64,000 nt of DNA from an uncultured Acidobacteriota bacterium (GCA_963847655.1 CAWKAS010000014.1:29584-93583); one strand, 5' to 3'. Counted from the stretch's first letter, positions 4,759 to 34,670 are shown. Numbers and translations: made by a program. Notes: a model not told the origin generated them from the letters alone.

Positions 4759-6517
4759 ATGCGTCTTTCAAGCGACGGCCACCCCCTCCACCCCAAGGGC
4801 TCACGGGCCCGCGTCCTCCTGTGCAGCGTCTTCGGGCCCTACGCCCGGGACGACGAGTACGGGAGCCGCTCCGTGAACCCCATGGAGCTCTACCAGAACC
4901 AGGTCACGCGGATGCAGGGCCCCTTCTCCCTGCGGATGTTCCACCGCTCCTGGGGATTGATGCTCATCCAGGCCAACATCGAGGCCCCGTGCACGCTCCT
5001 GGACTTCCCGGACCTGGAGCGCTTCGAGGCCGAGCTGCGGGAGCACGAGTACGACGTCGTCGGCATCGGCGCCATCATCCCGAACGTCGGCAAGGTCGCG
5101 AAGATGTGCGCGGTCATCCGCGAGCTCCAGCCGAACGCGACGATCGTCGTCGGCGGGCACGTGGCCAACCACGACCGGATCGACGAGCTGGTCGACGCCG
5201 ACCACGTGGTGCGGGGCGAGGGCGTGCAGTGGTTCCGGCGCTTCCTCGGGGAGGACGCGACGCAGCCGTTCCGTCACCCGCTCATCCAGTCCGGCTTCGG
5301 CACGCGCATCCTGGGGGTGAACGGCTCGGACGAGTTGGCGGACACCGCGGCCACCGTCATCCCCTCGGTCGGGTGCCCGCTCGGCTGCGACTTCTGCGCC
5401 ACCTCGGCCATGTTCGGAGGCAAGGGGCGCTCGTTCGACTTCTACTCCTCGGGCGACGAGCTCTACGACCTGATGGCCGGGCTCGAGGAGAGAGATGGGC
5501 GTCTCCGCCGTTCTTCGTCATGGACGAGAACTTCCTCCTGCACCGCAGGCGGGCGATGCGCCTGCTGGAGCTGATGAGGGAGAACGGGAAGGCCTGGTCG
5601 TTCATGGTCTTCAGCTCCGCCAACGCGCTGCGGCTCTACGCCATGGAGGATCTCGTCGCGCTGGGCATCTCGTGGGTGTGGATGGGCCTCGAGGGCGACG
5701 GGGCCGCGTACCGCAAGCTGAAGAACGCCGACACCCGGGCGCTGGTGCGGGAGCTGCAGTCGCAACGGGATCCGCGTCCTCGGCTCGAGCATCGTCGGCC
5801 TGCGCGAGCACACCCCGGAGAACATCGACGCCGCCATCGACTACGCGGTCAGCCACGACACCGACTTCCACCAGTTCATGCTGTACACGCCGGTCCCCGG
5901 GACGCCCCTGTGGAAGAAGCACAAGGAGGAGGCGACGCTGCTCGACGAGAGCGAGTGCCCGACCGCCGACGTGCACGGCCAGACCCGCTTCAACTACCGC
6001 CACCCCCACATCCAGGACGGCCAGGAAGGGGAGATGCTGATCCGGGCCTTCCGGCGCGACTTCGAGGTGAACGGGCCCAGCATCGTCCGCATGCTGGGGA
6101 CGCTGCTGAAGGGGTATCTCCGCCACCGCGAGCACCCCGACCCGCGGGTGCGCGCACGCTTCTGGTGGGAGACCCGGGACCTCCGAAAGCACCTACGCGG
6201 GGATCGTCTGGGCGTCGGAGCGCTGGTTCCGCTCGAGCCCGGCCGTCCGCGCGAAGATCCGCGCGGTGCGCGACGATCTCCGGGCCGCCTTCGGATGGCG
6301 CAGCGCGGTCTGGGGAGCCGCGGTCGGCCCGGTCCTCCTGGCCGCCCTCTGGCTCGAGCAGCGCCGCCTGGACCGCGGGTGGACGTACGAGCCCCCCACC
6401 TTCTACGAGACCAACAGTCCCCTGGCCGACGCCGGCCGCGGGCGGGGCCCCGTCCCCGTGCCGGTGCGCTGGGTGGAACCCACGGTCGTCCCCCATGCCG
6501 AGGCCCAGACCGCCTAG
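4759..6517 (+). pseudogene. B12-binding radical SAM protein (DUF4070-type C-terminus), disrupted by three frameshifts
   Basis: N-terminal B12-binding domain, then the CPLGCDFC (CxxxCxxC) motif. The frame shifts 1->3 near 5500, 3->1 near 5760 and 1->2 near 6185, and each segment reads as good radical-SAM sequence (FFVMDENFLL...; NGIRVLGSSIVGL...; STYAGIVWASERWF...). The TAG stop at 6515-6517 lies inside a MITE terminus. An alternative TTG start sits at 4747. Confidence 0.75.
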
Positions 6518-6700
6518 GCGCGTCTCGTCACTGAAGTCGAGCACACAAGGCTCTCAGCGCGGCCAAGGGACTCGGCGGGCGGGGACCCCGGCGAGGACCC
6601 TGCTTCACTTCGTAGCTTGCGGGCCCGCAGCTGGGGTGCCCGCCGAGCCCCCGAGGCGACACGGGCCGTGAAGTAGACCCGACTTCGGTGACAGAACTAG
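6514..6700. mobile_element. MITE-like non-autonomous repeat element, copy A (187 bp, CTAG termini, imperfect ~23-bp TIRs, central palindrome)
   Basis: About 90% identical to the reverse complement of 34473-34658. The termini are CTAGGCGCGTCTCGTCACTGAAGTCG ... CGACTTCGGTGACAGAACTAG. The central palindrome is CTGCGGGCCCGCAG. Confidence 0.6.
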
Positions 6701-6706
6701 GCGCCT

Positions 6707-8292
6707 TCAGGCCCCATAGCCCTTGGGGGGGCGGAAGCCCCCGACGACGTCGGCCATCCCTCGGGCGACGTCGATGGGCGTCGCGTCCTCGAGGTAGGGG
6801 CCGAGGATCTGGATCCCGCACGGGAGCCCGTCGCGGGTCTGCCCCACGGGAGCGGTCGTGGCGGGCAGGCCGGTCAGCGTCGCGAACGAGATCCAGAACA
6901 TGCAGGTCCAGGTACGGTCGTGGGCCCTCGGGGGTGGCGAGCCGTCGGTCTTCCCGGGGCATCCGGTGGTCGTGGGGAAAGGCGGCCACGAAGGCGGTGG
7001 GCATCAGGAAGGCGTCGTGCGTGCGGAAGTACTCCTGCCAGATCGCCCGGGCGACCATCCTCCGGCTGCTCGCGGCCTGGAAGTGCCGGTGGGGGTCCAC
7101 CCGCGCCTGGGCTCGGAGGGCCTGAAGTCCTCCCGTCGGGTCCGCCGCGCGGGCCCGCTCCCGCTCCAGGTCCTCGTCCTCGAGGTCGAAGGCGAAGAAG
7201 GCGCTGAGCAGGTACCAGTAGGTCTCGAACTGCTCCCGTGGCACCACGCCCTCGGGCCAGCCCTCCTCGAGCCTGAGCCCGTCCCGGCGAAGGGCGTCGA
7301 TCGCGCCCGCCAGTGTCTCCCGCACGTCGGAGGAAAGCGGGCACTGCGGGTCGTCGAGGACGTAGCCGATGCGGTAGTCGTCCAGGCGAGCCTGGCGCGC
7401 CGGAGGCAGGGTCCAGCGGTAGGCGATGGCGTCGTCGCCCACCGGCCCGCCGAGCACGCCGAGCGACGTCGCCAGGTCCTCCGCGTGCCGCGCCATGGGG
7501 CCAGCCACCGGCAGGTCGGTGGGAGGCTGGGGGAGGCTGCCCGGAAGAGGCGGGATCTGGCCCCGTCGCGGGACGACGTTCAGGGTGGGCTTGTGACCGT
7601 AGACCCCGCAGAAGTGCGCGGGGGTGCGGATGGAGCCCCCGATGTCACTGCCCAGGGCCACGAATCCGAGCCCCGCGGCCAGCGCGGCGGCGTTGCCCCC
7701 GCTCGAGCCGCCGGGGGTGCGCGCGAGGTCCCAGGGGTTGTTGGTGGTGCCGTAGACCTCGTTGTAGCTCTGCAGGTCCCCGAGCAGGAGGGGCACGTTG
7801 GTGTTCCCCACGACGACCGCCCCGCCGGCACGCAGGCGGGCGACCGCCTCGGAGTCCTCGGCGGCCCGGTGATCGGCCAGGGAGGGCACCCCGACGGTCT
7901 GGGGCACGCCCGCGATGCCGAATGACTCCTTGATGGCCACCGGCACCCCGTGGAGGGGTCCCCAGCGCTCGCCCCGCGCCGAGCGCCTCGTCGGCGGCGC
8001 GGGCCCGGGAGAGGGCGGAGTCCGACAGGACGTTCACGTAGGCGTTCAGGGCCGGGTTGTAGCGGGCGACACGGTCGAGGACCTCCCGAGTGAGCTCGAC
8101 GGACGAGAGCTGCCGCCTGGCGATCGCCCGAGCGGCCTCGCTCGCGGAGGCGAAGGCCAGCCCTGGCGGGCGGGCCCCGCCGCGGGCCCAGGGGGCGCTT
8201 CGACCCAGGACGGCGGCGGCTCCGGCGCCCAGGGCACCGGAGACGAAGGCGCGCCGCGTGGAGACACGGCGCGGTGGTGCGGCCCACGGCAT
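6707..8292 (-). pseudogene. Amidase (amidase-signature family) with Tat signal peptide, disrupted by two frameshifts
   Basis: Tat signal RRAFVSGALGAGAAAVLG; GGSSGG motif; K...S..S catalytic region; C-terminus GLPCGIQILGPYLEDAT. The frame shifts near 7965 (a GGGG run) and near 6900. Confidence 0.8.
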
Positions 8293-8368
8293 GGGGGTCC
8301 TCCTCGGGGAACGACCGGGAGGTTAGCACGTGTCCTGGCGCCTCGTGGGGGCCCGGGTCTCGTTTGGA

Positions 8369-9206
8369 TCAGTCGGTGCCGGGCTCGTCCGCCTCGGCGG
8401 GCCGGGCGCCCAGGCCCGCCACCACGTCGATGCCGCCGTTGACCGTCTCGAGGTCGAAGCTCCCGCTTGCCGGGGCCGAGGCGGCCCTCGAGGCGGCGCT
8501 TCTTCCTGGTGGTGACCTCCAGGGGCAGGTCGCACCCGATCCCGCCGTTCACCGTCGTGGCCTTCAGGCGGCCGCCGGTGCCCTCGGGGAGGGACAGGTC
8601 GATGCCGCCGTTGACCGTCTCGAGCTCGTACCGCCCGCCCTCCGGGACCCGGGAGAACCCGGCGCGGATGCCGCCGTTGACGGTCTGGGCCCGCAGCTCG
8701 CCCTCGAGGTCGGCGAGCTCGAGGCCGCCGTTGACGGACTCGACGCGCAGGCTTCCGGCCAGCCCCTCGACGTCCACCGGGCCGTTGACGGTCTTGAGCC
8801 GCACGTCGGCGCCCCGGGGAACGGTGAGGTCGTAGTCGACCTTCCCCCGGTGGCCGCCCGCGAACCAGCTCCCCTTCGGGTACCGGGTCTTCACCCGGAC
8901 CTCGCGGCCTTCTCCTTCGATCACGACCTCGATGTCCTCGAGAGCCGCCTCGCTGGTGGCGGCTCGCGTCGCCTCGATCCTCACCTCGTCTCGCGACCAC
9001 GTGCGGAGCGTGATGCGGCCGTTCACGTTCTCGAGCTCGAAGCGCCCGTCCGGCTCCAGGGCGCGCGTCTCGTCGACGACGTCGCGAGCGTTCAGCGGCG
9101 CGCTCGGGAAGCCCGTGCAGGAGGCCAGGACGAGAGCCGCGACGACCGCGGCGGTCAGGGTCGAAAAGCGGTGCATTGACATGGGCTTGCCCTCCAACAT
9201 GAGCAA
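8369..9206 (-). pseudogene. DUF4097 (putative adhesin, VNG-repeat) lipoprotein, one frameshift near the 3' end
   Basis: Lipobox LVLASC; repeated VNGxI/V beta-strand motifs. The C-terminal ...GSFDLETVNGGIDVVAGLG... is found in another frame, with a shift near 8460. An alternative start is at 9182. It lies 77 nt upstream of the amidase on the same strand. Confidence 0.7.
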
Positions 9207-9345
9207 CGAAGCGGGCCCGCCTCGGGTTCCACGAATCCCCCGACTTTGCCCCCTTCAGGCCGCGGCGGGCTAGAATGCGCCGATTCGTCGCCGCCGGGCG
9301 AGCCGGAAACCCCCGTCGAGCGCCAGCGGCATATCGAGGAGCCGA

Positions 9346-10635
9346 ATGAGCGAGACGAGATCGTCCTTCCCGCCGGTCTTCTGGGTCGCCAACCTCATCG
9401 AGGTGATGGAGCGGTTCGCCTACTACGGGATCTACTTCGGCTTCGGGATCTACATGAAGTCCCTCGGCTTCTCCCCGGACCAGCTCGGGTGGGTGCAGTT
9501 CATCTTCCTGCTCCTCTCGTACACCATCCCGGTGATCTCGGGGACCTTCGCCGACAGGTTCGGCTTCAAGAAGACCCTGCTCGTCGCGTACATGGCGTAT
9601 CTGCCCGCCATCCTCCTGCTGATCTTCAACAAGACCTTCTCCGGGATCGCCCTCACGATGCTCACGATCGGCTTCGCCGCGGGCATCTTCAAGCCCCTGA
9701 TCGCGGGGACGGTCCGGGCGGTCACCGACAAGTCGAACAAGACCCTCGGCTTCGGCATCTTCTACGCCATGGTCAACGTGGGGGGGTCCTTCGGCCCCAT
9801 CGTGGCCGGGAAGCTCCGGGCGATCTCCTGGGACCACGCCTTCTACACCGCCGCGGGGATGATCGTGTTGATGTTCCTCGTGACGGTCTTCTTCTACAAG
9901 GAGCCACCCCGGCAGATCGAGGGGCTGACGCTCAAGCAGAAGTTCCGGGACCTGCGCACGGCGCTGTCCGACCTGAAGTTCACGAGCTTCCTGATCGTGC
10001 TCGGCGTCATGTGGTGGGTCCCCTTCTGGGCGTTCTTCAACCTCTGCGCCCTCTACGTCGACTCCAACGTGGACACCGCCCAGCTCTACCTCGACATCCG
10101 CAGCGTCCTCGGCTCGGGGATCGCCGGCTTCCTCTCCCACGTGGACGAGGACGGCACGAGGCGGGTGCTCGGAGAGTCCATCTCCAACACCGGCTACATC
10201 ATCGTGCTCCTGCAGGTGTTGGTCTCCAAGACCATCGAGAAGTGGAGGGCCCTGCCCACCTTCATGAGCGGTCTGGGGCTGTCGGCCGCCGGCTTCGTCA
10301 TCCTCGGCTACGCGCGGATGTCGGTCGCCTCGATGATCTTCGTGGGCATCTTCTTCTTCGCCCTCGGCGAGATGATGGCCTCCCCGCGGATCCAGGAGTA
10401 CATCACCTGGATCGCCCCGAAGGAGAAGGCGGGTCTGTACATGGGCGCCAACTTCCTGGCCACCGCCATCGGCGCGTTCAGCGGTCCCATCTACACCGGG
10501 CTGTACGGTCGCTTCGACGCCATGGGGCGCCCCGAGTACGTGTGGTACACCCTGGCCGCCCACGTGCTGCTGGCCATCGTGGTCATCAACCTGTTCGTGA
10601 AGCTCTTCGGCGCCTTCGAGGAGCGGGAGGCCTGA
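9346..10635 (+). CDS. POT/PTR2 family proton-dependent oligopeptide transporter (MFS)
   Basis: 429 aa with the ERFAYYG PTR2 signature and 12+ predicted TM helices. Intact. Confidence 0.9.
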   Translation: MSETRSSFPPVFWVANLIEVMERFAYYGIYFGFGIYMKSLGFSPDQLGWVQFIFLLLSYTIPVISGTFADRFGFKKTLLVAYMAYLPAILLLIFNKTFSGIALTMLTIGFAAGIFKPLIAGTVRAVTDKSNKTLGFGIFYAMVNVGGSFGPIVAGKLRAISWDHAFYTAAGMIVLMFLVTVFFYKEPPRQIEGLTLKQKFRDLRTALSDLKFTSFLIVLGVMWWVPFWAFFNLCALYVDSNVDTAQLYLDIRSVLGSGIAGFLSHVDEDGTRRVLGESISNTGYIIVLLQVLVSKTIEKWRALPTFMSGLGLSAAGFVILGYARMSVASMIFVGIFFFALGEMMASPRIQEYITWIAPKEKAGLYMGANFLATAIGAFSGPIYTGLYGRFDAMGRPEYVWYTLAAHVLLAIVVINLFVKLFGAFEEREA

Positions 10636-10639
10636 CCCG

Positions 10640-12445
10640 TCAGCGGCAGGAGCCGCGGTACATCTCGGCGGCGCGGACGGCGTAGACGACCTCGTAGTCG
10701 CCGGCGTCCATGAAGCGTACCAGGCTCAGGCCGCTGGGCAGCATCAGGACGTGGTTGCCGCCGTAGCCGGACATGAGGGGCACGTCGACGGTGCAGCGCC
10801 CGGTGTCGGTGCGGACCGTCCAGACGGAGTGGAGGTAGCGCTCGCTCGCGGCCGGGGTCTGGTAGGCGGCCCGTCCCGCCCGGCGCATGGCCTCCCGGAC
10901 CTTGGTCCGGCTGACGAGCTGCCGGCCCCCGGCAGAGCCCTCGTCCTGGAGGAGCTGGGCCACCTTGGCCGCCGCGTCGACGTCGGGGTAGCTGCCCCAG
11001 CCCATGATGGGCGTCCCGCGGGCGCCGTCCGGCTCGATCGACCGCGAGAGCGGCAGGTGGGGGACGCCGATGGGCTCGAGAACGTCCTGTCGCACCATCG
11101 TCCAGTAGTCCGCGGCCGGCCCCTCGCGCATCTTGACGTAGCTGTTCATGGCCTGCGAGAGCACGAACGAGTGCGTGGAGTAGTACGCGAACTCCGTTCC
11201 GGGGGCCGGGGGAGCGTCCGGGAGAGCGGCGATGGCGGCGATCTTGGAAGCCGCGGAGCGAGCCTGGATGTAGGGCCCGATCGCGGCGCCCCGCTCGCCG
11301 CCCACGGTGCCGGTGACCATGTTCAAGGTGTGGTGGAAGGTGACGCCCTGCCAGCCCGGGTGACCGGCGAGCTCAGGCACGTGGTCGATGATCCGCTCGT
11401 CGAAGATCCCGTCTCCGTAGCGCTGGGCCAGGTAGAACATCGACAGGCCCAGGCCCATCGTCTTCGTCACCGAGAAGACGCCATGACGCATCCACTCTGG
11501 CCAGGGATGCGGGCCCGAACGAGTGGCCACCTCCTGCTGGTAGAGCTGGCCGTCCACGAGGAGAGCCACCGCGCTCAGGTCGGTGTCCGCGAAGCCGTTC
11601 CGGGACGTGGCCTGAGTGGTCTCCGCGTCCGGCAGCGCGGACCAGGGACGCAAGGGCAGGCGGGAGGCGCGCTCCCGGCCGAAGGCGGCGGCGGCGGCCT
11701 CGGCTCCGCCGGGACACACCGGGTCCCAGGTGGCCGGCACCAGGGCGGAGAAGTCCGTGCGGAGGTACTCCTCGTTGGGCGCCGTCTCCTGGGTGATCTG
11801 GATCGCGACCCGGGAGACCTCGACGCCGTTGAAGACGAAGGTGGCCAGGCCGTTGCGGGCCTGTCCGACGTAGTTGTCGGTGAGGGTGAAGAGAAACGTC
11901 GCTCGGGAGTAGCCCGCGTCCGCGGCTTCCTCCCAGACCCGGCCCGGGTTGGCGATGACGTTCCAGAGGCTGCGACCCCTCCCTCCGGCGCCGTGCCCCG
12001 ACAGGATCAGGTCACGCTCCAGGGGAACGAGCCAGCCGCCGCGGGTGACCAGGGGCAGGGAGAACGCGGGGAACAGGGTCTGGCCCCCGCCCCTCCAGTC
12101 GGAGTCCGGGTGCGTCGTGGACATGGGCGTCTCGGAGAAACGGAGCGTTCCGCAGAGCACGTGGGAGGCAGCCCCCGCGTCTCCGAGCGGCTGAAAGTAG
12201 GCGTTGTGAACCACCCCGGGCGGCGTCGCTCCGAAGAGCTCGTCCACCGTCAAGGCGTCGCGGATGCCGGCGGGCGGTGGTGGGGTCGCGGTGGGTGGCG
12301 GGGGGGCGGTCGGGCTGGTGTCGTCGCCGCCGCAGGCGGCGAGAAGGCAGAGGGCCGTCAGGGTGAGAAGAGCCAACGACCACGACGTGTCCCGGCGAAC
12401 CCTTCCGAGGCGAAATGCTGGGTCGAGATGGCAGTGCGCCGGCAT
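10640..12445 (-). CDS. Beta-lactamase-family serine hydrolase lipoprotein
   Basis: S-x-x-K active-site motif (SVTKTMG); signal peptide with lipobox LLAAC. The start is chosen at MPAHC to avoid overlap with the upstream gene (a longer ORF extends to 12676). Confidence 0.75.
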   Translation of the reverse strand: MPAHCHLDPAFRLGRVRRDTSWSLALLTLTALCLLAACGGDDTSPTAPPPPTATPPPPAGIRDALTVDELFGATPPGVVHNAYFQPLGDAGAASHVLCGTLRFSETPMSTTHPDSDWRGGGQTLFPAFSLPLVTRGGWLVPLERDLILSGHGAGGRGRSLWNVIANPGRVWEEAADAGYSRATFLFTLTDNYVGQARNGLATFVFNGVEVSRVAIQITQETAPNEEYLRTDFSALVPATWDPVCPGGAEAAAAAFGRERASRLPLRPWSALPDAETTQATSRNGFADTDLSAVALLVDGQLYQQEVATRSGPHPWPEWMRHGVFSVTKTMGLGLSMFYLAQRYGDGIFDERIIDHVPELAGHPGWQGVTFHHTLNMVTGTVGGERGAAIGPYIQARSAASKIAAIAALPDAPPAPGTEFAYYSTHSFVLSQAMNSYVKMREGPAADYWTMVRQDVLEPIGVPHLPLSRSIEPDGARGTPIMGWGSYPDVDAAAKVAQLLQDEGSAGGRQLVSRTKVREAMRRAGRAAYQTPAASERYLHSVWTVRTDTGRCTVDVPLMSGYGGNHVLMLPSGLSLVRFMDAGDYEVVYAVRAAEMYRGSCR

Positions 12446-12522
12446 CGGGTTCGACGGGCTCTCCCTGAAGAGAGACACGCAACCCCGCGTCATTTGTTCC
12501 CGACGCCGGCTCCGCGGGCGAA

Positions 12523-13605: not shown

Positions 13606-13724
13606 CGATCTTTCTCCTACGTTCACGATAGCTTACGCGACGCGGCCCCGCGCCGTTCCGTCACTCGCCGACGCCCACCGTGCGTCCGCCGAAACGCTCG
13701 GCGGGATTGAATCCCGCGGTGTGC

Positions 13725-15629
<1,905 letters not shown>

Positions 15630-15667
15630 CGCCCGACGTTAGCACGGGGAGCGGGTGCGGTTCAGCC

Positions 15668-20963: not shown

Positions 20964-20973
20964 GGGACAGGGC

Positions 20974-21405
20974 GTGAAGATCCGGGCATTCGCGGAGGCG
21001 GACGAGGACCGAGCCGTCAACCTCTGGGACCGCTGTGGACTTCTGCGGCCCTGGAACGATCCCCGAAGGGACATCGCGAGAAAGCTCCAGGTCCAGCGCG
21101 AGCTCTTCCTGGTGGGCGAGATCGACGGACGGATCGTGGCCGTGGTCATGGCCGGATACGAGGGCCACCGTGGCTGGGTGGACTACCTGGCCGTCGAGCC
21201 GGAGCTCCAGGGCAAGGGGCTCGGGCGTCAGATGCTGGCCGCGGTCGAGCGGGGGTTGGCCGAGCGAGGCTGCCCCAAGGTGCAGCTCCAGATCCGCCGG
21301 GGAAACCTCGGCGTCGTGAGGTTCTATCGCGAGCTCGGCTACGCCGAGGACGAGGTCATCAGCATGGGCAAGCGACTGGAGCTCGACGAGGGTGATACGG
21401 GCTGA
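20974..21405 (+). CDS. GNAT family N-acetyltransferase
   Basis: GTG start; 143 aa with the acetyl-CoA binding motif (QGKGLGRQML). Confidence 0.85.
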   Translation: MKIRAFAEADEDRAVNLWDRCGLLRPWNDPRRDIARKLQVQRELFLVGEIDGRIVAVVMAGYEGHRGWVDYLAVEPELQGKGLGRQMLAAVERGLAERGCPKVQLQIRRGNLGVVRFYRELGYAEDEVISMGKRLELDEGDTG

Positions 21406-21424
21406 GGCCCGGTGCTCCGACTCG

Positions 21425-21512
21425 GGCGGCTGCGTTCGGCCACCCGTCTGCGGGCCCGCAGGCTTCGAAGTGGAGCAGGGTCCTCGCCGGGTCCCGGCCG
21501 CCGCAGCCTCGA
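21425..21512. repeat. Internal fragment (~88 bp) of the MITE-like repeat (central palindrome region only, no TIRs)
   Basis: CTGCGGGCCCGCAGGCTTCGAAGTGGAGCAGGGTCCTCGCCGGG matches the core of copies A and B. It lies in the GNAT/MoxR intergenic region. Confidence 0.45.
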
Positions 21513-21592
21513 CGGTCTGGCTTCGGGGGAGCTCCGCGTCTCCTGAGGACCGGCTGCGATATAGTCCGGCCGAGAGGCGGGGGAGACCCTCG

Positions 21593-22531
21593 ATGAACGA
21601 CGACCTGCAGCGGCGATTGCCGGCCTTGAAGGCCCAGCTCGGCCGGGTGATCCTGGGCAAGGGGGAAGCCCTCGATCACGTGCTCGTGGCGCTCTTGAGC
21701 GGCCACCACCTCCTGCTGGAGGACGTGCCGGGGGTGGGCAAGACGACCCTCGCCAAGGCCTTGGCCCGCTCCTTCGACGGCCGCTTCCGTCGGGTGCAGT
21801 TCACGCCCGACCTCCTGCCCACGGACATCCTCGGCTCCGCCGTCTACAACCCCCGTGACGGGAGCTTCAGCTTCCAGGAGGGGCCGGTCTTCACCCACGT
21901 CCTCCTCGCCGACGAGATCAACCGCGCCTCACCCCGCACGCAGTCGGCACTGCTCGAGGCGATGAGCGAAGGGCAGGTCTCCGCCGACGGCGCCACCCGG
22001 CCGCTGCCCTCTCCCTTCCTGGTGGTCGCGACCCAGAACCCGGTGGAGTACCACGGGACGTACCCCCTGCCCGAGGCCCAGCTCGACCGGTTCGGGCTGC
22101 GCCTGAGCCTCGGGTACCCGGGGGCGGAGGAGGAGGTCGACGTCATCTTCAGCCAGGCGGAGAGCCACCCCGTCGACTCCCTCGAGCCGGTCCTGAGCGC
22201 CGAGCACGTCCTGGCCCTGCAGGCCCGCGTGCGCAAGGTGCGGGTCGAGCGTCGGCTGGGGCGCTACGTGGTGTCCCTGGCCGAGGCCACGCGACGCCAC
22301 CCCTCCGTCCAGCTCGGCTGCTCGCCCCGGGGAACCCTGATGCTCGTGCACGCGGCCCAGGCCCGGGCCTTCGTGGAGGGGCGCGACTACGCGACCCCCG
22401 AGGACGTCAAGGCCGAGGCGGTTCCCGTCTTCGCCCACCGCCTGGGCCTGGAGACGAAGGCCCGCTACTCGGGGGTGTCGAAGGAGGACACCGTGCGCGA
22501 GATCCTGGCCTCCGTGCCGATCGGCCTCTGA
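21593..22531 (+). CDS. MoxR-like AAA+ ATPase
   Basis: Walker A GVGKTT, Walker B/sensor motifs and an AAA lid. The start at MNDDLQ is preceded by GGGGGAG. Confidence 0.9.
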   Translation: MNDDLQRRLPALKAQLGRVILGKGEALDHVLVALLSGHHLLLEDVPGVGKTTLAKALARSFDGRFRRVQFTPDLLPTDILGSAVYNPRDGSFSFQEGPVFTHVLLADEINRASPRTQSALLEAMSEGQVSADGATRPLPSPFLVVATQNPVEYHGTYPLPEAQLDRFGLRLSLGYPGAEEEVDVIFSQAESHPVDSLEPVLSAEHVLALQARVRKVRVERRLGRYVVSLAEATRRHPSVQLGCSPRGTLMLVHAAQARAFVEGRDYATPEDVKAEAVPVFAHRLGLETKARYSGVSKEDTVREILASVPIGL

Positions 22532-25988: not shown

Positions 25989-25995
25989 GGACCCC

Positions 25996-27537: not shown

Positions 27538-27657
27538 GCCGCGGCTCTCAGAGCCGCGCCTCGATGTCCTGGATCTGCTTCTGCATCGCGGTCCGCCAGA
27601 GGTCCGAGGCAACGATTTCCGGCCCGGGGTCGTCTACAGGAGAAAGAGAAACGCCCT

Positions 27658-27702
27658 CTTGACGGAACTACCAAGGTAGTATTACCGTAGTAGTTGAAGG
27701 AG
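27658..27702 (+). promoter_or_regulatory. blaI-family promoter/operator: TTGACG -35-like hexamer and two tandem 14-bp dyad boxes (ACTACCAAGGTAGT, ATTACCGTAGTAGT), then a GGAGG RBS
   Basis: Read directly: a TAC-N4-GTA dyad is repeated twice immediately upstream of the blaI-like gene. The GGAGG lies 8 nt before the ATG. Confidence 0.55.
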
Positions 27703-27709
27703 GACGAAG

Positions 27710-28096
27710 ATGCCGCGCCAGACCCTGGGCGATCTGCAGCACGCGATCATGGCCGTCCTGTGGGAGCGGGGGGAGGCCACCACCGCCGACGTTCACGAGG
27801 CCCTCTACGCCGAGCGGGGCCTGGCTCTGACCACCATCGCCACCATGCTGCGGAAGATGGAGGACAAGGGCGTCGTCGCCCACCGCTCCGAGGGCCGCCA
27901 GTTCGTCTACCGCCCCACGGTGACCCAGACGGAGGTCCGCGAGTCCATGGTGGGGGAGCTGGTCGAGCGTCTCTTCGGGGGCGACGCGAAGGCCCTGGTG
28001 GCCCACCTCGTCTCCGAGCACGAGATCGACGGGGCCGACCTGGCCGAGCTGCGCCGGCGCGTGGGGGCGGGCCGTGGGAAGGGGGGTCGGCGATGA
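27710..28096 (+). CDS. BlaI/MecI/CopY family transcriptional repressor
   Basis: 128 aa; winged-helix N-terminus (LGDLQHAIMAVLWERGEATTADVHEAL) and a C-terminal dimerisation helix. Confidence 0.9.
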   Translation: MPRQTLGDLQHAIMAVLWERGEATTADVHEALYAERGLALTTIATMLRKMEDKGVVAHRSEGRQFVYRPTVTQTEVRESMVGELVERLFGGDAKALVAHLVSEHEIDGADLAELRRRVGAGRGKGGRR

Positions 28097-30100
28097 GCGG
28101 GCTGACGGGCTGGCTCCTGACCTACCTGCTGCACAGCACGGTCCTGCTCGGTGGGGCGGCGCTCGTGGGTCTCGTCCTCCGGGAGCGCCGGCTCGGCCTC
28201 CAGGAGGCCGTGCTCAGGGCGGCGCTGGTGGGCGGCTTCCTCACCGCGAGCCTGCAGCTGGGTCTGGGCGTGCAACCGCTCGGCGGGGTCTTCACCCTCG
28301 CCGAGGCCCCGCCCGCTCCGCGGACGGTGCCGCTGGCCCCGCCCGCGCCGTCGGTCGTGACGTTGCAGGGGCCCCTTCCCGCCGTGCTCGAGGAGGTTGC
28401 GGAGACGCCCGACACGCGCGAGGCCACTCCTGGCTGGAGCCTTCCCGCACCCGCGGCGTGGGGGCCCGCCCTGGTGGGCCTGTGGGGCACGATCGGCCTC
28501 CTCGCCCTGGCCCGTCTCGGGGTGGCGGCGGTTCGCCTGCGGCGCCTGCTGCGTCCGCGCCATCCCCTGGCCGGCACCGGTCTGGCCTCGAGCGTGGCCG
28601 CCCTCACCGCGGGTCTCGGCCTGCGTCGCCCGGTTCCCGTGAGCACGGCGCCGCGGCTCGACGTCCCCCTCGCCACCGGCGTCGTCCACCCGGAGGTGTG
28701 CCTCCCGCCGCGGACCCTCTCCGAGCTCGAAGGGGACCAGCAGGTCGCCCTGTGCGCGCACGAGCTGGCTCACGTGGCGCGGCGCGATCCGACGTGGATC
28801 CTGCTCGCCCGGCTGGTCGAGGCCGTGGCCCCGCTCCAGCCCCTCAACATCTGGGCGCGACGCCGTCTCCAGGACGTGGCCGAGTGCCTGAGCGACGACC
28901 TCGCGGTGGCGGCCTCCGGGCATCCCGAGGGTCTGGCCCGCTCCCTCGTCGACGTGGCCGCGTGGACCGTGGCCGATGACGTTTACCTCCCCGCGGCGGC
29001 AGGGGCGCTCAGCTCCCGCCACCGCCTGGGGCATCGTGTGGAGAGACTCATGGACCCCCTGCGCTCACTCGAACGTCCCGGTCGTCTTCTTCTGCCGCTG
29101 GCCGGCGCGGCCGTGCTGGCCACGGCACTCGTCACCCCCGCCGTCTCGGGCACGTCGGTCCCGGAGGCGCAGCCGTCTTCGACGACCACCGTACCGAAGG
29201 CGCCCGAGGCGCCCGTGGCCCCGGAAGCTCCCGAGGCTCCCGAGGTGCCGGAGGCTCCCGGAGGCCCCGGAGACTCCGGAGGCCCCCGAAGCCCCCGAAG
29301 CCCCCGAAGCCCCGGAGGCGACGGAGAAGCCCCGCTCGCCGGCAGCGCGGGAGCTCGAGGAGCTGACGCGCCGGATCGAGGCGCGCGCCGAGCAGCACGC
29401 GGCGCAGATGGAGGAGGTCGGCGCCGAGATCGAGCGGATCGTGGAAGCCAGCCTGCCTCCGGAGGAGGAGATGGACCGCCTGGCCAGCGAGATGGAGAGT
29501 GCGGCCGAGGCCCTGGCCGAGGCGCACCGGATGCAGCACGGGCGCGAGGGCGCCTCCACCGAGGAGGAGCGCGCCGAGGCGCGGGCCCGGGCGGAGGCGG
29601 CTCGCGCCCGCATGGCGGAGGCTCGCGAGCAGATGCAGGCGGCCACTCGGGAGCTCGGGATTCCGGACGGCGAGCTGCGGCGCCTGCAGGAGCGGGCCCG
29701 CGACATGGCCAAGGCCGCCGCCCCCACGCCCGAGGAGCGGCGCCGACTCGAGGAGCTGACCCGCGAGATCGTCGAGGAGTCCATGCCCGACCTGGACGAG
29801 CTGCGTGAGGAGATGGAGGAGGTCGGCCGGACGCTCGACCTGGACGAGCTGCGGAAGGAGATGGCGGAGATCAACCGGACGGTGAACCGGGAGAGCAGGG
29901 AGGCGATTCGGGAGAGCATGCGGGTCGTGCGGGAGGCCCTGCGCGAGACCATGCCCCGTGTGCGCGCGGAGGCACGGGCGGCCCGTGAGGCCGCACGGGA
30001 GTCGGCACGCCACCGCCAGCGTGAGGTCGACGGCGACCGGGAGCTGGGCGAAGCGGAGCAGCGGCACGCGGACGAAGCGGCGGAGGCCCCCGAGCTCTAG
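28093..30100 (+). pseudogene. BlaR1-like M56 family metallopeptidase, with a PEAPEA repeat linker and a charged coiled-coil C-terminal domain (one frameshift inside the repeat)
   Basis: Its ATG overlaps the blaI stop (ATGA). It has 4 TM helices and the HExxH motif HELAH. A Pro-Glu-Ala 9-bp tandem repeat follows; an extra G near 29261 shifts the frame. The C-terminal ~270 aa is an E/R/A-rich coiled coil ending at 30100. No penicillin-binding sensor domain is present. Confidence 0.75.
29191..29330. repeat. Tandem 9-bp repeat array (CCCGAGGCT / CCCGAAGCC variants) encoding the (PEA)n linker
   Basis: Read directly from the sequence; about 14 units. Confidence 0.7.
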
Positions 30101-30300
30101 TGGCCTGTACCTCTGGGCCTGGTGGACCTTTGTTCGCTGATGCCGGAACGTGGGCCCCTGAGAGTCTCTCGGGGCGGCGTTGGAGCGAGCAGGTCCCACC
30201 CTACTGGGCCTGCAATGACGAGTGGTCTCCGGGTCGCAGGCGTCCATCAGTGGCCGGTCTTGGGTGTCTCCCAAGGCTCGGCGCCGCCGTGGGCTGGGCG

Positions 30301-30780
30301 TCAGCGTGGGTGCTCAACGGAAACGACGTAGCTGTATTCCGGTCCGGACCATTCGTAAAGGTGGTGGAAGACCACGAGCCGGTATTCACCCGCCGGTGCG
30401 TAGAACGGTGGGGCGAACCCGTACCCGGACGCGAGAGCGTACTGATCCACGAGGATCCCGGCGCTCGAGTTGCCGTAACGGTCGTTTGGGGGCAGGTCCT
30501 CACAGTGCCCCCCGTTCCCCGCGTCGGAGATCCAGTGGCAAACCGAGAGGGTGACCCAGTCGGTATCGAGGTACAGCGACCTGAACTCGAGAACGCCGAT
30601 GGTCACCGGTCCTTCCTGGCCCACTGAGAACGGGTGGTACACCGTGTGACCCGCTGTGAAGGCCCCCTCGAATGTCTCCGTAGTGAGAGGGGGCGGCGGA
30701 GGCGGCGAGGGCGAAGTTGGCGAAGAGGAACAGCCCAGGAGGCCAAGCACGAAGACGGAAGCGCCGACCACCCTCCCCAT
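30301..30780 (-). CDS. Hypothetical lipoprotein
   Basis: Start at MGRVVGASVFVLGLLGCSSS (lipobox LLGC); poly-Pro linker; ~130-aa domain of unknown function. Confidence 0.5.
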   Translation of the reverse strand: MGRVVGASVFVLGLLGCSSSPTSPSPPPPPPLTTETFEGAFTAGHTVYHPFSVGQEGPVTIGVLEFRSLYLDTDWVTLSVCHWISDAGNGGHCEDLPPNDRYGNSSAGILVDQYALASGYGFAPPFYAPAGEYRLVVFHHLYEWSGPEYSYVVSVEHPR

Positions 30781-31032
30781 GAGCCTCCATGGAGAATCAC
30801 AGTCCAAGGAAGGCTCTCCGAGCCGAAGCCATCGCCACCATCTTGCGGGCACGCCTCAACCTCTGAGACTCGAGCATACGCCCGGAAGGCATACGACTGC
30901 CAGCGACTTGCGTCTCCCGCCTCCCGGGCCTTTCCTCTGCGGACTCTCTCGCGTCGCTCGCACGCCTCCCGGCGGGGGCTGCACACGGAGCCCCGGCTGC
31001 GGCTGCAAGTGTGTTTGGCTCTGGGAGGTGTT

Positions 31033-31064
31033 TGGTGACCCGCCAGGGACTCGAACCCCGAACG
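31033..31064 (-). other. tRNA 3'-end-like fragment (T-arm + acceptor 3' strand + ACCA); no complete cloverleaf found
   Basis: The minus strand reads CGGGG-TTCGAGT-CCCTG GCGGGTC A CCA. No complementary 5' acceptor strand or anticodon arm lies within 90 nt. A second palindromic T-loop-like GGTTCGAACC sits at 31076-31085. Confidence 0.4.
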
Positions 31065-31495
31065 CAGAGGCTAGGAGTTCGAACCGGGGGCAACCCACCA
31101 GCACCCAGAAGCATGTAAGCGACGGGAAGCACGGGGAGAGCGACGAGTGAGCGACCTCGTGTGAGCGCGTGGATCGTGATGGGTTGGTGCCAACGTGGTG
31201 CCAAGCGAGCTCGCGGAGCCTGGCCGGCTTGGCGGGGGCGATCAGAACCCCCACCCCCGGGAGACCCTGGAGTGGGCTCGCCGGCATGGACAAACACTCG
31301 CCGCCGAGGTGGACCGTCTGCTGAAGGCCTCGCTTTCGCGGGTGCATCCCCCATCCGCACCGCTTTCGAGGAGATCCGACTCGTGAGACCTCGGGTCGCG
31401 CTCGACGAAGGGCGGCGGCGTCTCGGTCAGAGGTGGTAGTCTCGTGTGGAGCCCGCTCGGTCGGGGTCGCAGTCGACCGAACGAGGAGAGGTCCG

Positions 31496-32797
31496 GTGGC
31501 GAAGCAGACGCTCGCGGTCGTCATGGCTGGTGGCATGGGCGAGCGGCTACGGCCGCTTACCGACGTCAGGACCAAGCCCGCGGTTCCGTTCGGCGGCATC
31601 TATCGAATCATCGACTTCACCCTGAGCAACTGCCTCAACTCCGGTCTGTGGCAGGTATACGTCCTCACACAGTACAAGTCGCATTCGCTCACCAATCACA
31701 TCCAGGCGGGCTTTGGGTTTCTCTCGCGCCGGCTGAACCAGTTCGTCGAGACGATCCCAGCCCAGATGCAGACAGGTAGCCAGTGGTACGCGGGCACCGC
31801 CGACGCCATTCGGCAGAACCGGCTCTTCCTACAGCGCTCGGCGCCCCAGCAGGTCCTCGTTCTCTCGGGAGATCACATCTACAAGATGGACTACCGGATC
31901 ATGATCCACTTCCACCGAGAGCGCCGTGCCCGCGTCAGCGTGGCCTGCATCCGGGTCCCGGCGGAAAGCGCGCGTGGCCGGCTCGGTGTCGTGGAGGTCG
32001 ACGAGGAGGATCAGGTGACGGGGTTCGGGGAGAAGCCCGCCGAGCCCAAGACGATTCCGGGAACTGCCGACTGCCTGGCCTCGATGGGCATCTACCTGTT
32101 CAACTACGACGCCCTCCTCGAGACGCTGGACCTGGACGGGGAGGACTTTGGGCTGCACATCATCCCCAAGATGATCAAGGGCGGAGAACGCGTCTACGCC
32201 TACGACTTCACGAAGCGCAACCGCATCGCCGACTACGTGCACTTGTGGAAAGATGGTCTTCGCATGAAGGAGGTGAGCGATAACGCTCCCGACTCCGGCT
32301 ACTGGCGCGACGTGGGGACGCTCGACAGCTACTGGCGGGCGAACCTCGACCTTGTTTCCGTGGCGCCGCCTTTCAACCTGTACGGAGAGCTCTGGCCCTT
32401 GTTCGGTCGCCCGCAGCACGCCCCGCCGGCCAAGTTCGTGCACGAAGGCGACAGGACCGGTATCGCCATCAACTCCATCGTCTCTGAAGGAGTCATCGTG
32501 AGCGGCGCCCAGGTTCGGCGGAGCGTCCTCGGCCCCGGCACCTACATCCACTCCTACGCGACTATCGACCAATCGGTGCTCATGGGTGCGGCCCGGGAGA
32601 AGGGGACGCGCTACGAGACGACCATCGGCCGCCATTGCAGGATCCGCAACGCCATCATCGACAAGAACGTGCGAATCCAGGAAGGAGCGCACCTCGGCTT
32701 TGACCGAGCTCTCGACGAGCAGCGCGGCCTCACCACACTTTCCATCCCCGGCACGGACGAGTACCTCGTGGTCGTGCCGCGTGATGCCACCGTCTGA
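31496..32797 (+). CDS. glgC: Glucose-1-phosphate adenylyltransferase
   Basis: GTG start after a GAGGAGAG RBS. It has the MAGGMGERLRPLT nucleotidyltransferase motif, PAVPFGG and the left-handed beta-helix C-terminus. Confidence 0.9.
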   Translation: MAKQTLAVVMAGGMGERLRPLTDVRTKPAVPFGGIYRIIDFTLSNCLNSGLWQVYVLTQYKSHSLTNHIQAGFGFLSRRLNQFVETIPAQMQTGSQWYAGTADAIRQNRLFLQRSAPQQVLVLSGDHIYKMDYRIMIHFHRERRARVSVACIRVPAESARGRLGVVEVDEEDQVTGFGEKPAEPKTIPGTADCLASMGIYLFNYDALLETLDLDGEDFGLHIIPKMIKGGERVYAYDFTKRNRIADYVHLWKDGLRMKEVSDNAPDSGYWRDVGTLDSYWRANLDLVSVAPPFNLYGELWPLFGRPQHAPPAKFVHEGDRTGIAINSIVSEGVIVSGAQVRRSVLGPGTYIHSYATIDQSVLMGAAREKGTRYETTIGRHCRIRNAIIDKNVRIQEGAHLGFDRALDEQRGLTTLSIPGTDEYLVVVPRDATV

Positions 32798-32940
32798 CGG
32801 GCGCCTCGTGGAGCCGGCGGCCTGGGACCGCGGCATCGCCGGCCCGCGCCGAGCCGCGGGGCCAGACGGTGTGTTCGTCTACTGCTTCTTCAAGGGCACC
32901 GCCATCCGCTCGGATTGACCCTGGTGTCCGGAGGTGACTC

Positions 32941-33756
32941 ATGCTTGAATCGTGGCCGAGCCTGAGGGGCCTGGTGCTCGTCGTTCCTCTCGTCCTTCTG
33001 CCGGCGTGGTGGACGCTCGCCACCGCCGCGCCCCGGCCCGAGGCGGGAGTCACATTCACGGTCGTCTACGACAACACCGCGGTCGACGAGCGGCTGCAGC
33101 CGGACTGGGGATTCGCCTGCTTCGTCACCGGCAAGGAGCGGACCGTCCTCTTCGACACCGGGACGAAGCCGGACGTCTTATGGGCCAATTTGAGGAAGCT
33201 GCGCCTTCGACCCGAGGGCGTCGACGTCGTCGTGCTCTCCCACGAGCACGGGGACCACACGGGAGGCCTCTGGTCGTTTCTGGAGAGATGTCCGGACGTG
33301 ACGGTGGTGGCTCCCGACGGCTTTTCGTCGAAGTTCTTCGAGAGGGTGAAAACCGCCGGCGCCCGGAACCAGAGGATCGGGGCGCCAACCGTTGTCGGCG
33401 ACGGGCTGTGGGTGACCGGGGCCGTCGGCGGGGACATCGTCGAGCAGGCGCTCGTCGTCGAGACCTCGATGGGCCTCGTGGTCGTGACGGGCTGCAGCCA
33501 CCCCGGCGTCGTGGAGATCGTTCGGAAGGTCCAGGAGTTTCTGGCGCCGCCCATTCACCTGGTGTTCGGAGGCTTCCACCTTCTGAAAGCGTCCCCCGAA
33601 GGGGTGCGCGGTGTGATTCGGGACTTGAAGCAGCTCGGCGTGGAGCACGTCGGACCCACCCACTGCACCGGCGAGGAGGCCATCCGCCTCATCCAGGAGG
33701 GCTTCGGGAGCGACGATGTGAAGGTAGGGGCGGGGCGCATCCTGCGATTTCAGTAG
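32941..33756 (+). CDS. MBL-fold metallo-hydrolase (secreted)
   Basis: Signal peptide and the HxHxDH motif (SHEHGDHTGG). Confidence 0.8.
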   Translation: MLESWPSLRGLVLVVPLVLLPAWWTLATAAPRPEAGVTFTVVYDNTAVDERLQPDWGFACFVTGKERTVLFDTGTKPDVLWANLRKLRLRPEGVDVVVLSHEHGDHTGGLWSFLERCPDVTVVAPDGFSSKFFERVKTAGARNQRIGAPTVVGDGLWVTGAVGGDIVEQALVVETSMGLVVVTGCSHPGVVEIVRKVQEFLAPPIHLVFGGFHLLKASPEGVRGVIRDLKQLGVEHVGPTHCTGEEAIRLIQEGFGSDDVKVGAGRILRFQ

Positions 33757-34065
33757 CCGTTCGTGTGCTGGGCCTGGTCCTCTCTGTGCGCCGCGGGCCG
33801 CAGTGCCGCACGATATCCTGCTCGAAGGTCCGACCCTCGGGGCCGCGCACGAACTGCGTCGAGGCGAGGACCCGGGCGAGGGCGGGGTCGATCGCGGCCC
33901 GAAGGGGCCGGTACCGAGCCTGGAGGCCCATCCTCGGGGGCGGCGCCCGAGACGCCGCCCCCAGGATGCAAGCCCCCAGCGGGGTCTAGCCGCCTAGGAG
34001 TCCACCCCCGTCCGCCGGGGAGGCGTTCACCCGTCGCGCGGCAGGCCGGTTATCATGGGGCACCG

Positions 34066-34476
34066 ATGACCCCTGATCAGGTCGACGTCTTCCGGACGAG
34101 CCTGAACCGCTGTCTGGCCGCCAGCGGCTTCCTCGAGAGCTTCTACCAGAGCTTCGTCGGCTCCTCGGAAGAGGTGCGCGAGAAGTTCAAGAACACCGAC
34201 ATGAAGCGCCAGATCAAGATGCTCGAGGACTCCCTCTACGTCATGGCGGTGGCGGCGCAGGGGGGGCGGGGCAGCCCCGCCCGCGGCGCCCTCCCCGCGA
34301 TCGCCCGAAGACACAGCCGCGAGGACCTCGACATCCGGCCCGCACTCTACGACCTGTGGCTGTCGTCGCTGATCGAGACCGCTCGGCGCTACGACCCGGA
34401 CTTTACCGACGCCACCGAGGCGGCGTGGCGCGGCACCCTCTCCGCGGGCATCGAGTACATGCGCTCACGCTACTAG
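34066..34476 (+). CDS. Globin-like (sensor-globin/protoglobin-type) small protein
   Basis: 136 aa; FLESFYQSFVGSSEEVREKF...KML matches globin helix patterns. The TAG stop is contributed by a MITE terminus. Confidence 0.5.
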   Translation: MTPDQVDVFRTSLNRCLAASGFLESFYQSFVGSSEEVREKFKNTDMKRQIKMLEDSLYVMAVAAQGGRGSPARGALPAIARRHSREDLDIRPALYDLWLSSLIETARRYDPDFTDATEAAWRGTLSAGIEYMRSRY

Positions 34477-34658
34477 TGCTCCGTCGCCGAAGTCGTGTCT
34501 ACTTCACGGCCCGTGTCGCCTCGGGGGCTCGGCGTGCACCCCGGCTGCGGGCCCGCAAGCTTCGAAGGGAAGCAGGGTCCTCGCCGGGGTCCCCGCCCGC
34601 CGAGCCCCTTGGCCGCGCGGGAAGCCTTGTGTACTCGACTTCGGTGACGAGACACTAG
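34473..34658. mobile_element. MITE-like repeat element, copy B (186 bp, inverted relative to copy A)
   Basis: The termini CTAGTGCTCCGTCGCCGAAGTCG ... CGACTTCGGTGACGAGACACTAG are inverted repeats of each other. The central palindrome is CTGCGGGCCCGCAAG. It lies in the convergent globin/csp intergenic region. Confidence 0.6.
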
Positions 34659-34670
34659 CGCCTGCTGGGC

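Follow-up and report, generated by a model that had tools for sequence, protein, structure and literature searches.

A probable CTAG-inserting MITE with a conserved hairpin core in an uncultured Acidobacteriota bacterium

The ERIC/IRU and Correia (NEMIS) repeats, imperfect palindromes 100-150 bp in length, are found between genes in both orientations, in many cases within 3' UTRs, and their central part is conserved. They are thought to be IS630-type MITEs acting as RNA hairpins, and effects at the RNA level have been documented. Unlike the element described here, they target TA, and we know of no sequence similarity between them and this element; in addition, the core family presented below differs from ERIC and Correia repeats in that the same core sits in several outer shells.

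Members of the IS481 family are flanked by an NCTAGN direct repeat and have inverted repeats (TGTTGCGGGTCATGACGTTG and TGTGTTTCTCAGGGACGTTGGT) which start with TGT, and the TAG of their target repeat supplies stop codons (PMC6794481, PMC2516522). MITEPsy1 of Pseudomonas syringae, derived from the IS5 family, is a MITE of ~100 nt with 18-nt inverted repeats and a 4-nt duplication of CTAG or YTAA (PMC3189936). A REP unit is 20-40 bp long and is composed of an 8-9-bp stem, a 4-5-nt loop and a terminal tag; like the core described below, REP/REPIN sequences and the repeats linked to TIRs of tyrosine transposases form hairpins, are extragenic, cluster with repeats and lie downstream of genes (PMC3733652).

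Here, we analysed a stretch of 64,000 nucleotides from an uncultured Acidobacteriota bacterium (the window), in which an initial annotation had described two full, mutually inverted copies of a repeat, A and B, each with CTAG at both ends (Table 1). We found this description to be accurate. The two copies are 92-93% identical: the inverted pair 6522-6695/34480-34653 gives a gap-free alignment of 174 nt with 93% complementarity, and the identity is 91.7% over 181 nt when gaps are allowed. The homology ends exactly at the CTAG tetranucleotides (6514-6517, 6697-6700, 34473-34476 and 34655-34658), and the flanks of A and B share none. The terminal inverted repeats, 26 nt in length, are as initially described in copy B (CTAG TGTCTCGTCACCGAAGTCG and CTAG TGCTCCGTCGCCGAAGTCG, with 20 of 26 positions matching between left and right) and are also kept in A and in the metagenome contigs L022, L023 and L026; the description does not fit copy A, whose tips are irregular, with 3 nt more at the left and 2 nt fewer at the right. 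An 8-nt junction repeat, CTAGGCGC, is present at both ends of A (6514-6521 and 6697-6704). The consensus ends of the element are 5'-TGT...CA-3'. The TGT start is seen in the left repeats of B (TGTCTC) and L026 (TGTCGT) and in the right repeat of L023 (TGTTCC), the right repeat of B begins with TGCTCC, and the tips of A and L022 depart from this start. The element is small and gene-free, no Pfam hit overlapping its body of 178-179 bp.

Table 1. Coordinates of the repeat copies and their parts, counted from the first nucleotide of the window
Feature	Position	Strand	Remarks
Copy A	6514..6700	+	CTAG + 179-nt body (6518-6696) + CTAG
Copy A, left terminal repeat	6518..6546	+	GCGCGTCTCGTCACTGAAGTCGAGCACAC; 3 extra nt at tip
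Copy A, right terminal repeat	6673..6696	-	TTCTGTCACCGAAGTCGGGTCTAC, read on - strand; tip 2 nt shorter than that of B
Copy A, conserved ~100-nt core	6559..6658	+	covariance model 86.9 bits
Copy A, near-invariant apex of core	6593-6630	+	
Copy A, 12-nt palindrome	6618-6629		TGCGGGCCCGCA
Copy F, stand-alone core	21420..21519	-	covariance model 103 bits
Copy B	34473..34658	-	CTAG + 178-nt body (34477-34654) + CTAG
Copy B, left terminal inverted repeat	34629..34654	-	TGTCTCGTCACCGAAGTCGAGTACAC, read on - strand
Copy B, right terminal inverted repeat	34477..34502	+	TGCTCCGTCGCCGAAGTCGTGTCTAC, read on + strand
Copy B, conserved core	34517..34616	-	covariance model 89.6 bits

In IS481, ISLxc2 and ISRe46/TnRErm46, as in the A/B element, the CTAG target is kept on both sides, the repeats are of the TGT type, the TAG of the target repeat supplies stop codons and the target genes stay intact. 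However, members of the IS481 family are 1-7 kb long and carry a transposase gene, whereas the A/B element has 180 bp and none; their 6-bp NCTAGN contrasts with a duplication of 4-5 bp (8 in A), and the interior of A and B is an unrelated palindromic core. MITEPsy1 resembles the A/B element as a small MITE with a 4-nt CTAG/YTAA duplication, but it has GGAAGG-type termini, no long central palindrome and no sequence similarity to A and B. In comparison to REP/REPIN sequences, the A/B unit is three times larger, its termini are true inverted repeats and its target is duplicated; it lacks a GTAG tag, and its surroundings showed no RAYT/TIRYT gene.

The mobility of the element was assessed by comparison with the orthologous Logan SRR22808089 contigs L032 and L038, which show 92-97% nucleotide identity to the window. 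Both copies are absent from such a relative, A from L038 and B from L032, and the site of A is also empty in L042 and in L039 (a MAG). The empty B site of L032 reads ...CAGCAGGCG CTAG TAGCGTGAGC..., with a single CTAG, while the filled site of the window reads ...GGCG CTAG (178 nt) CTAG TAGCG... Since one CTAG is present in the empty allele and two in the filled one, the target site has been duplicated at B, which is what the initial annotation had proposed to look for. At the empty A site, positions 1749 and 1751 of L038 align to window positions 6697 and 6517, respectively, so that 179 nt are missing, and the gap between the amidase and radical-SAM genes amounts to 189 nt in the window versus 11 (L038), 15 (L042) and 73 nt (L039). 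The L038 site holds 5 extra nucleotides (CCTAG CCTAG); these look like an excision footprint, which would suit cut-and-paste transposition over the copy-paste mode assumed for IS481. At either end of the element, CTAG is followed by an identical base in A (G/G), B (T/T) and L023 (C/C). In B, different bases stand before the two CTAGs (G at the left, A at the right), and an A precedes the right CTAG in all four copies; this base thus belongs to the element, and the duplication comprises CTAG or CTAGN.

The metagenome contigs L022 and L023 contain full-length copies that share the inverted repeats, have CTAG on both sides and lie in unrelated flanks, and degenerate copies occur in L015, L016 and L026; in all five contigs the element is the only part that aligns with the window. 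BLAST of the 186-bp unit gave no match in the plasmid collection. In viral contigs, the inverted-repeat pattern gave 0 matches, and 3 matches to a loose apex pattern were judged to be due to chance. The comparison of L005 (empty) with L015 (filled) is only suggestive, as synteny is lost at the CTAG.

Insertion at CTAG, presence or absence between genomes of 92-97% identity and unrelated flanks are thus all observed. We conclude that A and B are probably copies of a non-autonomous DNA transposon (MITE) of 178-182 bp, presumably mobilised by a DDE transposase encoded elsewhere. A non-autonomous MITE is also what the initial annotation had proposed, and the finding that both full copies are insertion polymorphisms relative to orthologs, with a duplication at B, speaks in its favour. 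At the sequence level, this is a clean example of a recent transposition, from an uncultured lineage of Acidobacteria with 72% GC. That A and B are instead the two ends of a segmental or inverted duplication, which would have been indicated by extended flanking homology, has a negligible probability: the similarity stops exactly at the CTAGs, and relatives lack A and B independently of each other, with the flanks intact.

A transposase domain was detected neither in the window ORFs tested, as had been noted before, nor in the gene tables of syntenic MAGs or the fetched loci; a DDE transposase encoded elsewhere would mobilise the A/B element. The IS481 family is its most likely source, a reading to which we give a roughly even chance. 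The A/B repeat, TGT-CTCG-TCA-CC-GAAGTCG, has the layout TGT...TCA..GAMGTYG in common with IS481 repeats, although with three sequences only this is to be taken as a lead. Both ends of the element show a CTAG-centred target and, with the deviations in A and L022, inverted repeats beginning with 5'-TGT, but B shows a duplication of 4 bp, or possibly 5, in place of a 6-bp NCTAGN. When the element ends were translated in the frame set by the terminal TAG, the frames were open but offered nothing usable for a search.

It is possible, rather than probable, that the same MITE was moved by a transposase of the IS5 family or of the IS630/Tc1-mariner family, in the latter case by cut-and-paste with a TA duplication inside CTAG. 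The 4-bp duplication at B suits IS5, of the CTAG/YTAR type, better than the 6 bp of IS481, and MITEPsy1 duplicates the 4 nt CTAG or YTAA (PMC3189936); against IS5, the TGT...CA termini are unlike GG/GA-type repeats and the GGAAGG-type, IS5-like ends of MITEPsy1. As for IS630, it is reported to transpose with a preference for TA within 5'-CTAG-3' (Tenzen & Ohtsubo 1991, in the references of PMC2170065). Because TA forms the middle of the duplicated CTAG, duplications of TA and of CTAG look alike, and the CTAG-C-CTAG of the empty A site in L038, with its 3-nt insert between two TAs, resembles a Tc1/mariner excision footprint (TA, 3 nt, TA). A 3.9-kb segment at 30101-33985 was considered as an autonomous partner of the MITE and rejected, as it has no transposase and no terminal inverted repeats. 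This segment is absent from L032, is bounded by CTAG and carries glgC-like and metallo-beta-lactamase-fold genes.

The coordinates of the flanking genes agree with the earlier statement that all three copies in the window are intergenic. Copy A lies between the stop codons of a radical-SAM/B12 gene and an amidase gene (6707-6709), copy B between a globin-like gene and a cold-shock gene (stop at 34735-34737), and copy F between a GNAT gene (end at 21405) and MoxR (start at 21593). The left CTAG of A holds the stop codon of the radical-SAM/B12 gene (TAG, 6515-6517) and the CTAG of B at 34473-34476 that of the globin-like gene (TAG, 34474-34476); both genes end on the same TAG in the empty alleles. 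CTAG is depleted about 4-fold in the window (19 sites versus 84 +/- 8 expected), and 4 of the 19 sites flank A and B. Many of the sites inspected by eye are close to the end of a gene or coincide with it, so that TAG can provide the stop codon. Insertions would land at the 3' ends of genes by means of CTAGs overlapping TAG stop codons, and as the duplicated CTAG would restore the stop codon, they may be nearly neutral, the choice of target rendering the element harmless. This would explain the positions between convergent genes. Some caution is advisable with the annotation of this locus, since the amidase call of the source record (472 aa) runs through copy A.

While the A/B element is ordinary in kind, its conserved hairpin core is the odd feature. 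Copy F is central here. It had been regarded as an internal fragment (21425-21512); the copy is real, but it proved to be a complete member of the core family and not a truncated 186-bp unit. It is 82% identical to A and B (E=1e-15), has neither their arms nor CTAG, and is 91-94% identical to copies from MAGs and metagenomes. The perfect palindrome noted at the centre of the repeats also exists, with a restriction: in A and B only 12 nt are perfect (TGCGGGCCCGCA), and the 14-mer CTGCGGGCCCGCAG is perfect only in F. Copy F is present in the orthologs L025, L036 and L037; the MAG contigs L034 and L046 carry unrelated sequence of similar length at this locus, L043-L045 have a different upstream gene, and none of these provided a clean empty site.

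The core family comprises 22 non-redundant copies in total; contigs of related Acidobacteria, from MAGs and metagenomes, account for about 20 loci. Besides copy F, at least 12 loci carry the core without the A/B repeats, and it is also enclosed by outer arms of at least two further kinds. It is GC-rich, measures ~100 nt and consists of three helices, the two outer ones being kept by compensatory changes (5 pairs changed on both sides, 27 cells), with a covariation score reached by 0 of 500 shuffles. The copies found hardly differ in the 37-nt apex, which is in part a matter of ascertainment, since all copies outside the window were retrieved with the apex pattern; in L036/L037, the apex of the orthologous copy carries 4 substitutions. 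In three orthologous pairs the cores are 96-98% identical versus 86-89% for the flanks, coding sequence included. Such high conservation is without explanation under a plain MITE model. Many stand-alone cores have CGTC directly before them. In at least six MAG-lineage loci, the core has a second repeat family, one with the TIRYT-associated motif GGGGWSAS, at a distance of at most 100 nt.

These features bear on an unlikely alternative, in which a tyrosine (HUH) transposase, for example a RAYT or TIRYT, moves a REP/REPIN-like palindrome in single-stranded form. Insertion would then take place on the 3' side of CTAG with no true duplication, and the element itself would end in the second CTAG. 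A filled CTAG-X-CTAG and an empty CTAG formally fit insertion beside a target tetranucleotide, the whole unit is a long hairpin, CGTC is one of the REP tags (PMC3733652), and the GGGGWSAS repeats are close by. However, REPs of 20-40 bp with 8-9-bp stems (PMC3733652) stand against a core of ~100 nt, A and B carry true 26-bp inverted terminal repeats, target duplication is indicated by the identical bases that follow the two CTAGs of A, B and L023, and a Y1 gene was present in none of the loci looked at. Membership of the core in the CGTC-tagged REPs was rejected on size and geometry (~100 nt, three helices).

In the folding check proposed initially, both strands fold better than shuffled sequences (z = -3.5 and -5.0). 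The terminator or regulatory-RNA role suggested along with it found no support: a sigma-70-like promoter or an intrinsic (U-tract) terminator was not found at the core, Rfam gave 0 matches in the window at the gathering score and only chance hairpin matches at E<10, and there is no clear strand preference (summed folding -1555 versus -1605 kcal/mol; 38 versus 66 G-U pairs, much of the latter difference coming from one shared ancestral position). It is quite improbable, even more so than the tyrosine-transposase route, that the core acts as a structured RNA, be it an sRNA or a cis-regulatory element of 3' UTRs, with the repeats being gene copies of it and not mobile DNA. The compensatory changes in two helices, the near-invariant apex and the greater identity of orthologous cores than of their flanks would suit this, as would the sense-strand position of the core downstream of a gene in about 11 of 15 loci; but in 4 of 15 it is antisense to both neighbours, the neighbouring genes are unrelated in function, no Rfam family emerged even at E<10, promoter and terminator are missing, folding energies and G-U counts do not single out a strand, and insertion with target duplication was seen for A and B.

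Within the MITE interpretation, the core is most likely, by analogy with ERIC, Correia and REP elements, a cis-acting hairpin: either DNA that would be needed for mobilisation, or a stable RNA hairpin that may be tolerated or useful in 3' UTRs. More tentatively, and with some doubt on our side, it could be a functional module in itself (a hairpin acting either as protein-binding DNA or as RNA), kept by selection or concerted evolution and carried or captured by at least three mobile shells. The candidate shells, proposed with the same reserve, are the CTAG/TGT repeats of A and B, GGCTGCCGCT...AGCGGCAGCC in the MAG, and the bare form. Such a module would explain why apex and stem pairing are conserved while linkers and arms vary, why orthologous cores of 96-98% identity lie within flanks of 86-89%, and why the core clusters with the TIRYT-like repeat family. 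The sharing of one core by several kinds of repeats is the only part of the present data that may lead somewhere new; if the core is under selection, it would represent an undescribed cis-acting element of this Acidobacteria lineage. In the window, its stand-alone copy, F, is located ~30 nt upstream of a likely MoxR promoter (TATAGT at ~21555).

The window (72% G+C) carries the repeat as two full copies, A and B, and a shorter third copy. A repeat finder returned one long inverted pair, 6522-6695 / 34480-34653, of 174 nt and 93% complementarity, and by gapped BLAST A and B are 91.7% identical over 181 nt. As the initial annotation had stated, CTAG is present at either end of both copies, and the likeness ends at these flanking CTAGs, which argues against a segmental duplication with extended flanking homology. 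The window holds 19 CTAG sites in comparison to 84 ± 8 expected from dinucleotide-preserving shuffles, and four of them are the junctions of A and B. This roughly 4-fold depletion is window-wide; several remaining sites lie at gene ends, where the TAG is a possible stop according to a quick, not systematic, check of the ORF list. When folded, as had been proposed, copy A was better than shuffles on both strands (z = -3.5 and -5.0). Gene context was read from codon-position G+C and Pfam; the cold-shock gene near B has its own hairpin, then GTTTTG, before the element is reached.

Coordinates of the repeats and neighbouring features in the window and in related contigs (L-numbers)
Feature	Sequence	Position	Neighbours or content
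Copy A (+)	window	6514-6700	B12-binding radical-SAM gene, TAG stop 6515-6517; convergent amidase, TGA stop 6707-6709
Copy B (-)	window	34473-34658	globin-like gene, 136 aa, TAG stop 34474-34476; convergent cold-shock gene
Third copy (-)	window	21420-21519	GNAT gene on one side, MoxR on other
Third-copy ortholog	L036; L037	1-76; 261-360	
Site orthologous to A	L038	1744-1754	CCTAG CCTAG
B-locus allele	L033	978-1141	unrelated ~150-nt insert
Single-base insertions	window	5762, 6190	radical-SAM gene
Single-base insertions	window	6903, 7983	amidase
Amidase P0130, 472 aa	window	6528-7946	
Lower-G+C segment	window	30101-33985	CTAG at 30097-30100 and 33986-33989
Direct-repeat region	window	35757-36051	repeats 35836-35932 and 35955-36051
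Second repeat family	window	4571-4668	
Second repeat family	L001; L002; L005	3305-3375; 4831-4936; 3631-3737	
Second repeat family	L007	113-216, 433-537, 3117-3221	
Second repeat family	L008; L017	7590-7695; 367-436	
AACGGAAG motif	L008; L020	893-960, 1090-1149; 60-180	
AACGGAAG motif	L028		

Comparison with relatives revealed alleles devoid of the element. The Logan contig L032 is 92-95% identical to window positions 29284-36360 and encodes an identical cold-shock protein near B. Its B locus reads ...CAGCAGGCG CTAG TAGCGTGAGC..., whereas the window has ...GGCG CTAG (178 nt) CTAG TAGCG.... L032 is thus a clean empty site with a single CTAG, which is duplicated in the filled allele, and the globin-like gene ends at this TAG in both. 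A further allele without the element, in L033, has its insert between the cold-shock hairpin and CTAG. Relatives of the A site were reached via amidase homologs (L038, L042 and the MAG contig L039); in these, the amidase to radical-SAM spacing is 11-73 nt vs 189 nt in the window. L038, which comes from the same sample as L032 and is 96-97% identical to the window, lacks exactly 6518-6696. Its junction, CCGC CTAG C CTAG GCGCC, is 5 nt longer than a simple empty site, and the extra nucleotides may be an excision footprint or a product of replication slippage; a 5-nt tandem repeat occupies the exact element site. L022 and L023 likewise contain full copies bordered left and right by CTAG, in flanks unrelated to the window's. 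The CTAG duplication at B, the presence or absence of A and B among relatives and the copies in unrelated flanks bear out the proposed MITE: A and B are such an element, with demonstrated target duplication and insertion polymorphism. This kind of element is already known, and the papers searched hold no description for this lineage.

The tips of both arms (the sequence outside the shared core) consist of six nucleotides followed by GTCACCGAAGTCG, and the consensus ends are 5'-TGT...CA-3'. IS481-family elements duplicate NCTAGN, their inverted repeats start with TGT, and the TAG of the repeat serves as stop for transposase and target genes (PMC6794481; PMC2516522). Two IS481-family repeats, TGTTGCGGGTCATGACGTTG and TGTGTTTCTCAGGGACGTTGGT, and the present one, TGTCTCGTCACCGAAGTCG, have the common layout TGT...TCA..GAMGTYG, a resemblance among three sequences and not a test. 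What speaks against membership is the length of the present duplication, 4 bp or perhaps 5 instead of the 6 bp of NCTAGN; in A, B and L023 the base following CTAG is the same at either junction. Mobilisation by an IS5 or IS630 transposase is possible, since the IS5-derived MITEPsy1 also duplicates CTAG/YTAA (PMC3189936) and IS630 targets TA within CTAG, according to an entry in the reference list of PMC2170065. Of these families, IS481 is inferred to be the likeliest mobiliser. No transposase domain was found among the window ORFs tested, in agreement with the earlier remark, or in the syntenic gene tables of the MAG.

The third copy had been regarded as an internal fragment. BLAST within the window matched it at 21418-21508 (82% identity, E about 1e-15). 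A scan of one representative genome per species with a pattern from the core's near-invariant middle, the apex, matched 8 contigs, every one from a single MAG, Acidobacteria bacterium ALSabin.143; 20 metagenome contigs matched the same pattern, several of them being loci already in this MAG. Alignment showed a core of ~100 nt common to all copies. Arms of the A/B type surround it in L015, L016, L022, L023 and L026, five MAG copies have different arms ending GGCTGCCGCT...AGCGGCAGCC, and the remainder, the third copy included, have no recognisable arms. With the armless cores the third copy shares 91-94% identity, and its score with a covariance model of the core (103 bits) exceeds those of B (90) and A (87), so it is a stand-alone core rather than a fragment. 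Within the window the model detected no copies beyond these three, and 67 kb of syntenic DNA from relatives gave no match. In L020, two cores lie in tandem, 113 nt apart.

RNAalifold predicts three helices in the core. In the two outer ones five pairs have changed on both sides (27 cells), a score reached by 0 of 500 shuffles, and slid controls went down to about 40% paired. The alignment of A/B-type with stand-alone cores also shows a C-G pair exchanged for G-C and an inserted pair, both of them compensated. The apex, GAGGACCCTGCT..CTTCGAAGC.TGCGGGCCCGCAG, does not vary in the set, 24 of its invariant bases being preset by the search pattern. The ortholog of the third copy has four apex substitutions (GCCCGCAG to GCCCCGAG, CTTCGAAG to CTGCGAAG, CAGGGTC to CAGAGTC), with the rest of the element unchanged. 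Three ortholog pairs from the MAG lineage have 96-98% identity in the core and 86-89% in the flanks; in the two pairs that include the third copy, core identity is 90% and 95%. The suggested terminator or regulatory-RNA role gained no support, as the repeat has no Rfam match, promoter or U-tract terminator, and its core no clear strand asymmetry. In about 11 of the 15 loci the core follows a gene and has the same orientation as that gene, and many loci lie between convergent genes; for A/B-type copies, a CTAG target at stop codons would itself yield such placement. The feature left unexplained is the conserved palindromic core, found also alone and in other shells.

The closest named relatives of the source are Acidobacteria MAGs, and the first ~27 kb of the window is syntenic with MAG contig JAJDNS010000061 (82-90% identity). 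Relative to L038, the window has four single-base insertions. Since each shifts the frame, both genes flanking A look like pseudogenes, or the stretch is locally misassembled; the other window stretches compared have no such insertions. The amidase of the source record reads through copy A. A 3.9-kb segment of lower G+C (61-69%), missing from L032, encodes a glgC-like nucleotidyltransferase and a metallo-beta-lactamase-fold protein; it is edged by CTAG direct repeats and has neither transposase nor terminal inverted repeats. A C-rich stretch located at, or close to, the start of an ORF of 1431 codons contains two direct repeats of ~97 nt, 81% identical; compared with L032, the region differs by several indels, each 9-25 nt long.

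A second repeat family consists of inverted pairs GGGGTCAGGTC(T)...GACCTGACCCC, 70-105 nt apart. At six or more MAG-lineage loci it is found no further than about 100 nt from the core; L039 and L042 lack the window copy at the corresponding position. The tip of this repeat fits the GGGGWSAS motif reported for repeats beside genes of tyrosine transposases (TIRYT), which are well represented among Acidobacteria (PMC3733652). Another motif, AACGGAAG(N)TYCCGAGTCCG, flanks the core with hairpins in three orthologous loci.
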